Virus record (IMG/VR): IMGVR_UViG_2541047851_000005
Source: a virus
Lineage: Duplodnaviria > Heunggongvirae > Uroviricota > Caudoviricetes
Direction: 5' to 3' (one strand)
Length of the DNA stretch: 40,984 bases
Below, in pieces: positions 1 to 35,676 of this stretch. Under the pieces are notes generated by a model, which did no database searches, was not told the DNA's origin, and worked only from the letters and a program-made list of their open reading frames with translations. Position numbers and translations under genes: made by a program. Position 1 is the stretch's first letter. Every line of letters starts with the position of its first letter.

Positions 1-696
1 TCACTTAGGGTATGGCTGAACCTTGAATAGCTTGGTATTTAGTCGCTTCCTTGCTCGCTTGTTCAGGAACCTGATGTAGCGATACTGATTAAATTTGTGC
101 ACCACGGCACGCTCTTTATTAGCCCGTAAATACACGCCTCGTTGTCCACCGCGTTTAATCGCGTTCATCGTTATCTCGTGATACCACTCACCATCCAGCT
201 CGTAGAACGTGCTTTCATGGCTGCCAATAAAATCAAAATTCGACGCCTGATACACAACGCCTGCGCGTCCGCAGCGTTCGTCAGCAAAGGACTGAACCCA
301 CTCCACTGACGGATACAGTAACCTTATGGTTTTCAGTGCATAACTGATGGCCCGAGATTCAGAGTTGCGGGGCATGTTGTCGTGTAGCCACATGCGGTTC
401 AACTCCATATAGCCCCGGTTATCCGTTTCAAGCACGACACGACGACCTGAGTTGGGGTTAAGGGCATATCCCTACTGGAGAACGCCAACCAGATCGCGTC
501 CGCTGAATACTCCCAGGTGGAGGTAAGAGTTATTCACAAAACGGCGGGAATAGTGCTTTGTCTGAATAATTGTGCGGGCCAGCCAGCAGGATATGGTTTC
601 AACGCGCAGCTCCTTTGAACCATAGCCAACAATCTGGCCTTCATACTCAATAACGCACGGTTTCGTCAGAATGCGTGATTTCTTCTCTTTTCCCAC
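1..696 (-). pseudogene. mom: mom (DNA modification protein Mom) interrupted by an in-frame amber codon at 472-474
   Basis: ORFs 472..726 and 1..435 are in the same frame, separated by TAG at 472-474 with 12 sense codons between. Read-through from GTG at 694-696 gives 231 codons, the length I recall for Mu Mom. Overlaps com 3' end as in Mu. Confidence 0.8.
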
Positions 697-835
697 AATG
701 TTTCTCCGTGGGATGCTCGCAGGCATTCAGCATTATGATGTGACGTTTGCAACGCGGACACCTGATTTCAATGTGAACAAAGGAATCCGCCTTAAATAAC
801 AGTTTGTTGCAGTTTTTACAGCGAATTGATTTCAT
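647..835 (-). CDS. com: Com, zinc-finger translational activator of mom
   Basis: 62-aa [16 protein letters not shown]...CPRCKRH with CxxC...CxxC zinc ribbon, matching recalled Mu Com; immediately upstream of and overlapping mom. Confidence 0.9.
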
Positions 836-945
836 CTCACCTCCTTTGCATCAATTCGCCACTATCTTAAAAAACATCGTGGGTTAAGTGTGGTTATTAG
901 GGCATAATCGATCTGTATTACCGATCGATTTGATTGATTCGATCG
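836..945 (-). promoter_or_regulatory. mom operon promoter region (Pmom) with C-activator site, T-run spacer and three Dam GATC sites
   Basis: Minus-strand reading gives TTATGCCCTAATAA dyad, a T6 run and TAAGAT upstream of com. GATC at 910-913, 923-926 and 941-944 overlap the gin 3' end, as in the Mu mom regulatory region. Confidence 0.55.
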
Positions 946-1511
946 TCGTTTTCTATATGCGTTCGTTTCGCAGGGTGTTTTTTATACAGAGTTGAGAGGG
1001 CCACATCGTAGATCAATGCGACCTGCTTGCGGGGGATTCCTTGTGCTAATAAACGCCCGGCCTGCTCCCACTCTGCTTTGGTTAGTTTAGGTGGTCGCCC
1101 ACTAATACGGCCTTTATTTCTGGCGGCAGCAAGTCCAGCCATCGTTCGCTCGATAATTAGTTCTCGTTCCATTTCAGCCAGAGCACCCATAACGTGGAAG
1201 AAAAAACGCCCCATTGGAGAAGATGTGTCTATGCTGTCGGTCAGACTGCGAAAATTAATCCCTCGCTCCCGTAGTTCCCCGACGAGAGAAATCAGATGTT
1301 TCATGCTTCGCCCGAGGCGATCCAGTTTCCAGACAACCAGCGTGTCACCTTTTTGAAGGCGCTTTAAAGCGCGTTTTAATCCCGGTCGGTCTGTCTTTGT
1401 CCCGCTTAATTTATCTTCAAATATTTGTTCACATCCTGCACAAACAAGAGCGTTTCGTTGCAGGTCTGTATTCTGGTCATTTGTTGATACCCTTATATAG
1501 CCAATCAGCAC
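918..1511 (-). CDS. gin: Gin DNA invertase (serine recombinase)
   Basis: 197-aa ORF MLIGYIRVSTNDQNTDLQ... with serine-recombinase N-terminus and C-terminal HTH; adjacent to gix site; matches recalled Mu Gin. Confidence 0.92.
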   Translation of the reverse strand: MLIGYIRVSTNDQNTDLQRNALVCAGCEQIFEDKLSGTKTDRPGLKRALKRLQKGDTLVVWKLDRLGRSMKHLISLVGELRERGINFRSLTDSIDTSSPMGRFFFHVMGALAEMERELIIERTMAGLAAARNKGRISGRPPKLTKAEWEQAGRLLAQGIPRKQVALIYDVALSTLYKKHPAKRTHIENDDRINQIDR

Positions 1512-3417: not shown

Positions 3418-3982
3418 TTTATTTTTGCATCGTACCAATGATGGCCACCACATGACCATATCCTTCAGCTGTGATATTTAATTGGTAGCTGGTATGCCTG
3501 GCTTGTTCAAAACGAGCACGAAGCAACATTATTTGAGCAACACATGGTTCAATACGACCCGCTTTAAACCACCTCGAATCAAAACTCTACTGAATGGGGG
3601 TCGGCTTCTGAGTATTAATAGAAACTATTCCGTTGCCATTTGTATTTCCCTTAACAAAATAATGTCACCTTTCCTACCCGCCGGAACCTGCCAATGCCGG
3701 ACGGGTTGACGCACCGCATAGACTAAAAGCTGCAATAATCCTGGAGGTATATGCGCCCGGCAGATAGGACTCATCACTTCCACCTGCCTGTATTTTTTTA
3801 ATAGTAATAGCATCTGCACACTGTAATTGAAACACATACCCATCATGAGCCGAACCATAGGGAATACCACCACCTTTATAATTCACACGGGTTTGAACGT
3901 CACCACAACCAACAGAGTTACTACTTAAGGGAATCATCAAACCAAATGCAACACCAACCTGGGTGTCAGCAGCTCCACGATT
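3418..3982 (-). pseudogene. Distal part of tail-fibre variable cassette (Sv), in frame with S but separated by amber and further stops
   Basis: Same frame as S ORF. After TAG 3983-85 the frame continues NRGAADTQVGVAFG...GGSDESYLPGAYTSRIIAAF...; in-frame TAG 3674-76, TGA 3665-67, TAG 3587-89, final TAA 3418-20. Confidence 0.5.
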
Positions 3983-4765
3983 CTATTGCCCTCCCACGTA
4001 CGGCTTCCTCAGATCAGTTGTACTGGTGTGTCGGCGGGCACACCCTTTGAAATATTCGTCACTAATGGCAACATCTTTAGAACCCACGAAAGCAACAGCG
4101 GCAACTTCACGTGCTGTTTTCAGTCTTGTCGCCGCCCAGGCAGTGTCTCGCATTTCGCCAGGAAGTCCATCGCTTTCTGATGTAAGATCGCCGGAGAAAT
4201 TCTCTGTACTGTGTTGCGCTGCGTTCTCCCCCCTGTTTCCCGTTTCCTGTAAACCGAGGTTTTGGATAAATAGCGGCTTATTGGGAATATCTGCTCCGTT
4301 CCGGTCTTTTGCCAGACGGGCATTGGCATTATCCATCGCAATTTTCACCGCTTTTGCGGTGGCTGCCAGCGTTTCACTGGGGCTGTCAGTGGCACTGGTT
4401 AGCTGAACGAGTCCTTTTTTGTTCAGGCTGGCATCATAGATATCCAGATTTTCACGTGCTGTACGCTGTGCTGATGCCCCGGCAATTTTAATTTCGCTGA
4501 GGTTATTTTTTATCAGCAGCGCGTTATTGCTCATAATGGCTTTAATGGACAGTGCAAGCTGGTTTAATTTTGTTTTATCCGGTTGAATACCGGCTTCTTC
4601 CAGCGTGTTTAATAACTCCGCCTGAACAATATTAAACCAGTCCATGCCGGGCCATGTGATAATATTATTCCCGTCACCTTCTGAAAACCAGCGAACGATA
4701 GCACTACGCTGGGCGGATACGGGCGGCATGACGGTTACGCCGCTGTCGTTATCAATATAAAACAT
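3983..4765 (-). CDS. S: Tail fibre protein S (constant part plus proximal variable part), terminated by an amber codon
   Basis: 260-aa ORF; N-terminal 166 aa constant region reads through gix (FIQNLGLQETG) into G; ends at TAG 3983-85, much shorter than the ~500 aa I recall for Mu S. Confidence 0.75.
   Translation of the reverse strand: MFYIDNDSGVTVMPPVSAQRSAIVRWFSEGDGNNIITWPGMDWFNIVQAELLNTLEEAGIQPDKTKLNQLALSIKAIMSNNALLIKNNLSEIKIAGASAQRTARENLDIYDASLNKKGLVQLTSATDSPSETLAATAKAVKIAMDNANARLAKDRNGADIPNKPLFIQNLGLQETGNRGENAAQHSTENFSGDLTSESDGLPGEMRDTAWAATRLKTAREVAAVAFVGSKDVAISDEYFKGCARRHTSTTDLRKPYVGGQ
4244..4269. repeat. gix recombination site (right in window)
   Basis: TTCCTGTAAACCGAGGTTTTGGATAA inside the S coding sequence; inverted relative to 1566-1591. 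Confidence 0.85.
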
Positions 4766-5307
4766 TAGTTATCTCCGTCATGGTAAACAAATTTATAAAT
4801 CTGATGCGCGGGTTTATATTTCTCCAGTAAACATTCCAGCGCACCCGATTCATAAACACGTAACGGCGTCAGAACATTATCCAGCACCGTTGCGTTGCGA
4901 TAATTTTTAATACCGTAAATATTGACCTGCGTAACCCACTGGCCTTCTGTGGAATCCGTCAGCCTGACGGTAAAACCGTACTGCGCAGCCAGCCATTCAT
5001 AAAAACGCCGACTCAGATTGCCGGTCATACGCATTTTATTCGCGGCAGCCCGCTGGCGTTCGGACAGGGTGCCGTTTTCGCTGGTACAGTCAGGCAACCC
5101 CAGAAATGATTCCCACTCCCCCAGATACCAGCGGGATGTGGACGGGAAACGCTCCCGCAGCATTTGCCGCGCATCATCCGCCGCAGTGGCAATCACGTCA
5201 CTGATGGCCTGCGCCAGCGCAGATAATTTGCTGTCGGGGCTTTTATTCCAGGCAAGCCCTGACGGCAGTAATTGCAGAAAGGCCGTCTGATAGGGTGTTA
5301 CAGCCAT
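4765..5307 (-). CDS. Tail/baseplate protein (Mu gp48-like)
   Basis: 180-aa ORF immediately upstream of S in the Mu baseplate block; position and size. Confidence 0.65.
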   Translation of the reverse strand: MAVTPYQTAFLQLLPSGLAWNKSPDSKLSALAQAISDVIATAADDARQMLRERFPSTSRWYLGEWESFLGLPDCTSENGTLSERQRAAANKMRMTGNLSRRFYEWLAAQYGFTVRLTDSTEGQWVTQVNIYGIKNYRNATVLDNVLTPLRVYESGALECLLEKYKPAHQIYKFVYHDGDN

Positions 5308-6380
5308 TCAATTGTCCCCGGTGTTAACAGTTCCGTATTCTCCGAACGCTGGATCTCTGTCGGGAAACGCACTTCAAAATCATCCAGACCGGTAACACCT
5401 GCCACCGCACGGATAATACGGGAGGGGGCAAGTGCGCCGCCCGGCGTCACCTCATTAAAAAACATGGTATTAATGGCGTGGGTAATAGCCTGTTTCAGTT
5501 CGGCTGTCTTCGGTGATATATAAATCCGTGGATTTACCGGCTTTGCCTTTGGCGCAAATACAGTGACATTTACACCGTCAGGCTGTCCGACAATCAGACC
5601 GGTGATCGGGTCAGTATGACCGGCGATATAATCCGCCACGCGTTCCACGTCTGCCGGTTGTGGAAAAATATTGCTCCGGTTATCCATAACAAACGTCACC
5701 CCGACTGTGCCACCGCCTTTCCATGTCGGAAAACACCAGGCACGGGTAACGCCGCTGACTTCACGTGCCCAGCGGACGTAATCAAACTGATTACCGCCGA
5801 ACGGAGGATACTGGACACGATATTCCAGCCGTGACAGCAGCTCCGCTGCACTCTCAATATCAGCTCCACCGGAAAACCCTTTTACAGTGATGGCATCGGA
5901 AACAACACAGGCAACCGGGGTGATCAACGTTAAAAGGGTATTCTCACCGGTATTTCCTGCCTCACCGGCAGCCAGTGCGGTAACGGTAATTTCCGTCGTT
6001 CCTGCACGGTCAATCACAATGGCATCAGCCAGGCTGTAAACCACACCATCAGCACGCTGCCAGCGTGTACCGGCAGGAATGGTGGTCGCTGCCGATGTGG
6101 TGACAGTCAGCGGGCCGCTGGCGGCTGTCGCCTGTTTGCGGCGCACCCCCCAGAACCGGCAGTGCTCCAGCAACTCATCTTCATCTGCTGTCGACGGGAT
6201 AATCTGCCGTCCAACCCATGAAATATGCTCGTGACAACCGGCAGCAAGGCCCGCCTGAGCATAAGCAATGGCACTCAGCGTTTTTTCACGGGCCTGAGGC
6301 CAGCTACCCGGCAGGCGCTGTTCAATATTCTGTTCTGTACGGGCAATCAGCGATGATAGTGTCGGTGGTGAATAAGCCAT
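5298..6380 (-). CDS. Baseplate J-like protein (Mu gp47-like)
   Basis: 360-aa ORF in baseplate block; size and position consistent with baseplate wedge J family. Confidence 0.75.
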   Translation of the reverse strand: MAYSPPTLSSLIARTEQNIEQRLPGSWPQAREKTLSAIAYAQAGLAAGCHEHISWVGRQIIPSTADEDELLEHCRFWGVRRKQATAASGPLTVTTSAATTIPAGTRWQRADGVVYSLADAIVIDRAGTTEITVTALAAGEAGNTGENTLLTLITPVACVVSDAITVKGFSGGADIESAAELLSRLEYRVQYPPFGGNQFDYVRWAREVSGVTRAWCFPTWKGGGTVGVTFVMDNRSNIFPQPADVERVADYIAGHTDPITGLIVGQPDGVNVTVFAPKAKPVNPRIYISPKTAELKQAITHAINTMFFNEVTPGGALAPSRIIRAVAGVTGLDDFEVRFPTEIQRSENTELLTPGTIEWL

Positions 6381-34901: not shown

Positions 34902-34926
34902 AAGGTATGCAGCAATGCTAGTGTGA

Positions 34927-35676
34927 AAAGAGGGACTGACCGGCGAAGGCGCTGCACGGCAGAATGCCATCAATGCTTCGGTTGCACAGGGCCTTGAGGC
35001 GTCCCTGCGCTGGCTGACGGAGCTGACAACGTCACTTGCCACCACAAACTACGCGATTACCCGGGTAAACGACAGGGTCAGTTCACTGGTCAGTGATACT
35101 GCCAGGCTGGCGCATTATTCCGCAGATACACGGGAGCAGTTACTCATCCTGGCCGATCAGGTTCACCATAAACTGAATCATCTTGAAGAAAAACTCCACC
35201 GTGTTGACCAGGTTCAGCGGGCGCAGTTACATCTTGAGCAGATATTCTCATGGTGGAGCGCCGGGCGATATGCGTCATTTTCCCCTGCCGGACGTTGTTA
35301 TGTGGCGCTTGAAGAGCTTCGCTGGGGCGCGTTTGGTGATGTGATACGTCAGGGCGAAACAGGCCAGGTTAACCAGCTACTGGATATTCTCAGACATAAA
35401 GCATTAACGCAGATGGCACAGGAGAGTGGCGGTAGTGCAACCGTGCGTCTGAACACTCTGGACTGGCTTGGTGGTCAGGGCCGGGAGCAGGCAGATAACG
35501 AGTGGCATGACGCGATTAACTGGCTGGGAGACTGGTGCAGTGAAGAGCAGCATCCGGTGATCTGGTCAACCACGCAGGCTGCAGAACACTTACCGGTTCG
35601 CATGCCTCGCCTCTGCTCTGCAGAACGCCTCTCTGAAAGTATGGTCGATGAAATATTTCAGAAGGGGGCTGCATGA
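34927..35676 (+). pseudogene. 5'-truncated ORF (about 250 codons, no start codon) translationally coupled to patatin gene; unknown function
   Basis: Frame open from TGA at 34924-26 to stop at 35674-76 with no ATG/GTG/TTG before GTG 35302; stop overlaps the patatin ATG (ATGA). Coiled-coil-like and Trp-rich C-terminus. Confidence 0.55.

Follow-up and report, generated by a model that had tools for sequence, protein, structure and literature searches.

Laboratory-made mutants of phage Mu that lack mom are viable, with DNA that is unmodified and restriction-sensitive, and mom is dispensable for growth. In Mu, the mom-com operon (AF083977, Mu_52/Mu_53; PDB 8BV8) stands near the right end of the genome, in the order gin, Pmom, com, mom and right end. 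Mom is a GNAT-fold enzyme that moves glycine from Gly-tRNA(Gly) onto the adenine N6 in double-stranded DNA, and the product then rearranges to 6-NcmdA (PMC13219725). Mom raises the plating efficiency on restricting hosts up to 10^4-fold; E. coli is killed by its over-expression, and cells that survived Mom expression had mom deletions (PMC7261163). A hairpin that pairs the Shine-Dalgarno (SD) sequence of mom with its GUG start inhibits mom translation in Mu and is opened by Com (PMC6483171).

We analyzed a viral record of 40,984 nucleotides (IMGVR_UViG_2541047851_000005; hereafter, the window), the first 35 kb of which are a Mu-like prophage in reverse orientation. On the minus strand, gin, the Pmom region, com and mom follow each other in the order of Mu. 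The window begins at the last base of the mom stop codon and so stops short of the phage right end (115 nt), which is immediately beyond it. Identity over the last kb of the prophage is 96.7% to Mu, 97-98% to D108, SfMu and several Mu-like phages of Yersinia, and 99.4% to the E. coli prophage of NZ_OZ040490.1 (WP_072301666.1, 'protein mom'), whose mom is two bases off. The lengths of com and mom, their overlap, the three GATC sites, the dyad half-sites, the -10 element and the SD/GUG hairpin are the same in Mu and in the window. The two differ in codon 75 of mom (TGG in Mu, TAG in the window), in two residues of Mom (D107N and V123T) and in two of Com (D20V and K52E). The NZ_OZ040490.1 prophage differs from the window in having TGG at codon 75 and an uninterrupted ORF of 231/241 aa, in a Com of the D20/K52 variant, and in its dyad spacer (CCCC versus CCCT in the window).

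Table 1 Positions of the mom-com operon and other features in the window.
Feature	Position	Strand	Description and basis
mom, interrupted	1..696	-	231 codons + TGA; GTG start 696..694; colinear with Mu mom
Amber TAG	472..474	-	replaces Trp TGG at codon 75/231 (W85 in the 241-aa numbering); next base G
N-terminal product	475..696	-	74 aa (84 aa from ATG 726..724); keeps W48, H58 and Y59, without all downstream catalytic residues
mom remainder, predicted untranslated	1..471	-	codons 76-231; called by gene callers as 144 aa (GTG 435) or 130 aa (ATG 393)
com	647..835	-	62-aa zinc-ribbon translational activator; 3' end overlaps the mom start; Pfam PF10122
Hairpin, mom SD (GGAG) paired with the GUG start	691..713	-	predicted fold; sequence identical to Mu
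com SD	845..840	-	alignment with Mu
Pmom late promoter	844..910	-	position transferred from the Mu annotation and alignment
Pmom -10 TAAGAT	869..864	-	alignment with Mu; no good -35
C-protein dyad TTAT-N6-ATAA	907..894	-	in Pmom; alignment with Mu
Three GATC (Dam) sites	944-941, 926-923, 913-910	-	upstream control region of Pmom; spacing as in Mu
gin-type DNA invertase	918..1511	-	intact 197-aa ORF
G segment	1587..4248		base-by-base mixture of both orientations; assembly artefact and source of all G-segment stops
Deletion junction	34922..34930		prophage left end (~980 bp: attL, c repressor) and ~2.1 kb of host DNA apparently gone

The mom gene, its amber codon and its regulatory region

An earlier note on this DNA had proposed that a single amber codon splits mom into two ORFs of the same frame, and that read-through from the GTG at 694-696 would restore the length of Mom. 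Both proposals held. The ORFs at 472..726 and 1..435 share a frame and are parted by the TAG at 474..472, and translation from GTG 696..694 to TGA 3..1 gives 231 codons with a sole internal stop at codon 75. An uninterrupted frame of 231-241 aa is absent, given this TAG. The 696 nt aligned without gaps, and codon for codon, with Mu mom (AF083977 35907-36602). At codon 75, where a sense codon one base away from TAG had been expected, both Mu and the closest E. coli prophage (NZ_OZ040490) have TGG (Trp). Across mom, the latter is only 2 bases apart from the window, one of them the codon-75 base and the other silent. Because Mu and this near-identical prophage both have TGG, the ancestral codon is TGG, and TAG is the product of one G-to-A transition. 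A total of 24 other nucleotide differences separate the gene from Mu mom, of which 20 are synonymous and the other four fall in the two missense codons (D107N and V123T). Since 20 of the 24 are synonymous, the mom frame was under purifying selection until recently, and the stop is not a chance ORF boundary.

The read-through protein matched the Pfam family of Mom (PF25680) with 252.8 bits (cut-off 27.1) over profile positions 1-202, and aligned without gaps, at ~98% identity, with the solved Mom chain 8BV8. PF25680 also matched both fragments in order, the N-terminal one at profile positions 1-46 and the C-terminal one at 62-202. We thus rejected a naturally short (~74 aa) Mom followed by an independent gene, which the earlier note had put forward as a way in which its reading could fail: successive matches to both fragments rule it out, and the family is naturally 231-241 aa long. 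By descent the gene is mom, represented here by a pseudogene or null allele. The start of mom differs between annotation pipelines (window 694-726), as the Mu GenBank record uses GTG 696 (231 aa) and PGAP uses ATG 726 (241 aa). The residue numbers of Mom are shifted by 10 between sources, with the 241-aa form in the 2026 structure paper and the 231-aa form in the 2020 paper.

The com frame is open, and its protein scored 31.4 bits against PF10122 (cut-off 22.9) with all four zinc cysteines (C6, C9, C26 and C29) kept. Two substitutions, D20V and K52E, distinguish it from Mu Com. The identical protein (the V20, E52 variant) was found on at least 1000 contigs, far above the count for the amber allele, and because of this occurrence it is a common natural variant and not a sign of decay. 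The regulatory elements of Pmom are identical to those of Mu save one dyad-spacer base, at a position that is also variable among phages with an intact mom. The Pmom region is thus preserved in sequence. Decay of the whole com-mom operon, as the two Com substitutions and the dyad spacer might suggest, was rejected on the basis of the same contig count and the same spacer variation in intact-mom phages. The predicted fold of the Com-target region was no more stable than that of shuffled controls (z = -0.14), so the hairpin call rests on identity with Mu. In general, the open com frame and the Mu-like sites confirmed the earlier proposal that the Com activator, the com-mom overlap and the GATC-containing promoter are preserved. 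The further proposal, that only the enzyme was knocked out, was right for the mom operon and wrong for the prophage, in which attL, the c repressor and the stretch ahead of ner are missing.

The D20V change of Com (GAT to GTT at codon 20, window 776-779) abolishes a GATC inside com, 57 nt after the ATG, and this site is kept in Mu and several relatives.

Occurrence of the amber allele in other assemblies

To profile the allele beyond the window, ten amber loci (L004-L013) from ten samples were retrieved from NCBI, ENA and Logan assemblies via look-ups of the exact protein. Among public proteins, the exact 74-aa N-terminal fragment was present on 41 contigs, one entry being EQV33824.1 of E. coli KOEGE 30 (63a), and roughly 60 assemblies have the allele. 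The window was identical to scaffold KE701229.1 of that strain (GCA_000459615.1) over all 6696 bases compared. The same TAG was found in 10/10 loci, with a mom that is 0-1 nt from that of the window. All ten amber prophages terminate in the Mu right end ...CGCCGCTTCA, 115 nt past the mom stop, and the host flank beyond it differs in every one of them (narG, an ETF/fixC cluster, an MFS transporter, cueO, an aldehyde dehydrogenase by selB, a dynamin-family gene, glpM, dsrB and two more). Some of the ten assemblies could be related isolates; that the insertion site is another one in each of the ten speaks against simple resampling.

These loci bear on the alternative that a poor-quality stretch of this draft assembly gave the TAG through an error of sequencing, as the earlier note had allowed for, or of the consensus. 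A gross consensus artefact, the mosaic G segment, does lie 1.1 kb away in the same record. That artefact, however, needs two orientations of an invertible segment, and since mom lies outside the inverted repeats, its cause cannot act on mom. The identical TAG also recurs at different chromosomal sites in nine further assemblies, which differ in project and source. An error is excluded for practical purposes because the identical codon stands in ten assemblies at ten insertion sites; the TAG is a real allele, and in the record of the window itself the base call rests on agreement with the other assemblies.

The ten insertion sites also imply that the allele was carried through repeated infection and transpositional lysogenisation. 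The TAG is an allele of a circulating, infectious and transposing phage lineage, and not a decay private to this prophage. Among the amber loci, the flanking phage DNA showed 0-37 differences per 4051 nt, in clustered tracts that look like recombination. Given these differences, the allele has outlived some diversification.

Within the amber haplotype, the intact Mom was called as 231 aa on 64 contigs and as 241 aa on 18 more, compared with the 41 contigs of the amber fragment, and the Mu-type intact Mom was on at least 1000 contigs. The TAG allele was found in 0/46 complete E. coli genomes that have this mom stretch (53 copies), and a scan for the exact amber 30-mer yielded no match in species-representative genomes, IMG/VR or JGI metagenomes. 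The amber lineage is uncommon, given its absence from these 46 genomes and from the 30-mer scans.

Two of the amber-lineage prophages have local variants. One (L012, 6796-6804) has a variant right terminus, ...GCGTTTATCGTGAAACGCTTCA versus ...GCGTTTTTCGTGCGCCGCTTCA, in which the outermost transposase-binding site was apparently replaced by a copy of the neighboring site. Another (L007, 5291-5476) has 15 substitutions clustered in 186 nt of gin, as if a short tract had been recombined in from a different Mu-like phage.

Predicted loss of Mom activity and persistence of the allele

In the 241-aa numbering, R111, S124 and R151 of Mom are essential, D149 contributes strongly, Y159 and W181 are important, W48 is a dimerisation residue, and removing the HTH-like insertion (175-209) abolished activity (PMC13219725). 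In the window, the mom frame still encodes all of these, together with H58 and Y59, which activity likewise requires. R111, S124, D149, R151, Y159, W181 and the insertion 175-209 are all downstream of the stop (residue 85). Because these all lie past the stop, the published mutagenesis implies that the 74-aa product cannot be active and that the phage is mom-null. The window was searched for tRNA genes and none is encoded, so there is no linked suppressor.

The amber codon may itself be functional, with low read-through, suppression by the host or assembly of the two fragments providing a reduced and less toxic dose of active Mom. Such a role is consistent with the undamaged state of com, Pmom and the whole downstream frame, catalytic residues included, in 10/10 loci, and with an SD-like GGAG (406-403) ahead of the internal ATG 393. 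However, the lineage is too young (mom variation of 0-1 nt) for an undamaged frame to count. The 130-aa ORF from the internal ATG starts after the essential R111 and is also without H58, Y59 and the dimerisation residue W48. Nor does the window supply a suppressor tRNA, and we know of no recoding element or signal at the mom stop. We consider a functional amber very unlikely.

The reading that we favor, with a probability of roughly 0.78, is that mom carries a real, inherited nonsense allele, which is null and persists in a Mu-like lineage as a neutral or mildly deleterious variant. The Trp75 change from TGG to TAG would have arisen once in a Mu-like phage lineage, and the allele would then have been carried via repeated infection and random-site lysogenisation of E. 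coli. Once the late operon is on, translation from the Com-activated GUG would terminate after 74 residues. The fragment would be without the catalytic core, with the likely result that no Mom enzyme is made and unmodified adenines are packaged. The phage should stay viable because mom is an accessory anti-restriction gene. Since growth does not depend on Mom, which is of consequence only on restricting hosts, it is plausible that the allele persists, most likely as a near-neutral variant. The mom-minus mutants of Mu were isolated in the laboratory, whereas the amber allele is in natural isolates and has spread through lysogenisation. A literature search for natural mom nonsense alleles returned nothing relevant.

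Loss of Mom may instead have been positively selected, either through toxicity of leaky Mom or because momylated DNA is a liability under modification-dependent defences. The lethality of Mom over-expression and the mom deletions of the survivors (PMC7261163) are in line with such selection. So are the spread of the allele to at least 10 insertion sites and the share of amber contigs in its haplotype, roughly a third. Contig counts, however, mirror sampling and not fitness, and the Mu-type intact Mom is far commoner, on at least 1000 contigs. Pmom is silent in lysogens (it needs the late activator C and Com), so toxicity should spare a repressed prophage. No defence system directed at momylated DNA is known to us. 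Overall, positive selection for the loss seems improbable. It is quite unlikely, too, that the allele is maintained and not merely tolerated, with the lineage gaining by switching off momylation or by cutting it to trace read-through. If it were maintained, 6-NcmdA hypermodification would be costly in nature, for example due to a host defence recognising 6-NcmdA or to toxicity on induction.

A known gene, an ordinary natural loss-of-function allele and an assembly artefact are all of known kinds. The biological weight is small: as an accessory anti-restriction gene mom has been studied well, and for it to acquire a nonsense allele is ordinary. The only mildly interesting point is the circulation of a predicted mom-null Mu-like lineage in natural E. 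coli. Natural and still-spreading mom-null phages of this kind could be used as controls for the cost and benefit of adenine hypermodification. For annotation, EQV33823 and EQV33824 are now two hypothetical proteins and should be a mom pseudogene.

Stop codons of the G segment and the left end of the prophage

Prophage tail-fibre segments that occur in mixed orientation are known to trouble assemblies, and in E. coli EC958 a DNA-invertase segment of 2-3 kb was present in both orientations in one culture and mishandled by the assembler (PMC4134206). In the window, long ORFs are absent from the stretch that separates gin from the constant portion of the tail-fibre gene. In an alignment of 2770 bases with the G segment of a P88-like phage, the region showed no indel, a uniform identity of 63% and a flat substitution spectrum without transition bias. 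The identity to the reverse complement of that segment was 62%, and one or other of the two orientations accounts for 99.3% of the positions. Two intact G segments from the phage lineage itself, in opposite orientations (L004 and L005), provided 1979 informative positions, with 949 matching one, 1009 the other and 21 neither. The order of the two orientations along the window G segment was random (runs test z = 1.6), with no base preference, and the segment was 62% identical to its own reverse complement versus 25.5% for an intact one. The sister loci show the G segment in both orientations, and in 9/10 of them the S/U and U'/S' genes are complete, whichever way the segment points.

A naturally diverged or hypermutated tail-fibre cassette was rejected based on the flat 63% identity, the zero indels, the lack of transition bias and the 99% fit to either orientation. 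The window G segment is a column-by-column merge of G(+) and G(-) that was generated in assembly, and it holds no nonsense mutations; the ORFs of the S variable part, U, U' and S' are destroyed on paper only. The ~1:1 mixture shows that both orientations were present, in about equal abundance, in the sequenced culture, and that Gin was active. Probably the assembler met two paths of equal length and collapsed this bubble into a choice at each base. The second orientation gave extra contigs in EC958 (PMC4134206), whereas in the window the two were merged base by base into nonsense. The earlier note had placed all nonsense codons of the prophage in its right-most 4.3 kb. This clustering did not survive the comparison, as the G-segment stops reflect the orientation mixture (1958/1979 positions fit one or the other). 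They are unrelated to the mom amber and stem from a consensus over a culture that held both orientations. As for the quality of the record, stop-codon inferences from the window G segment are void.

At the other end of the prophage, the phage sequence runs out at about window 34926, 77 nt before ner begins. The rest of the window, up to 40984, is 100% identical to an island common to many E. coli genomes, inside which the prophage sits, with the rdcA/rdcB dynamin-like pair, a patatin-like phospholipase, DUF932, an antirestriction protein, yeeS, yeeT and cbeA. In relatives that share its Ner protein, the c repressor is 171 aa long and the left end stands ~1055 nt upstream of ner. On the right, the prophage ends within a dynamin-family gene, ~2.1 kb from the point at which the left flank resumes in an uninterrupted genome. 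The missing host DNA (3890-6000 in the reference, L014) comprises the 3' part of the dynamin-family gene and the 5' part of rdcB. It looks like a single deletion removed attL, c, a TTGACA that is a candidate -35 of the early promoter, and ~2.1 kb of host DNA. Such a deletion would leave a non-inducible and non-transposable remnant: with attL and c lost, this copy could neither transpose nor be induced, and its mom would never be expressed anyway. The deletion appears to be specific to the window copy, whereas the amber codon belongs to the lineage. In another E. coli assembly (L023, 4222-4674), a Mu-like remnant consists of c, ner and the first 150 transposase codons, directly followed by host genes.
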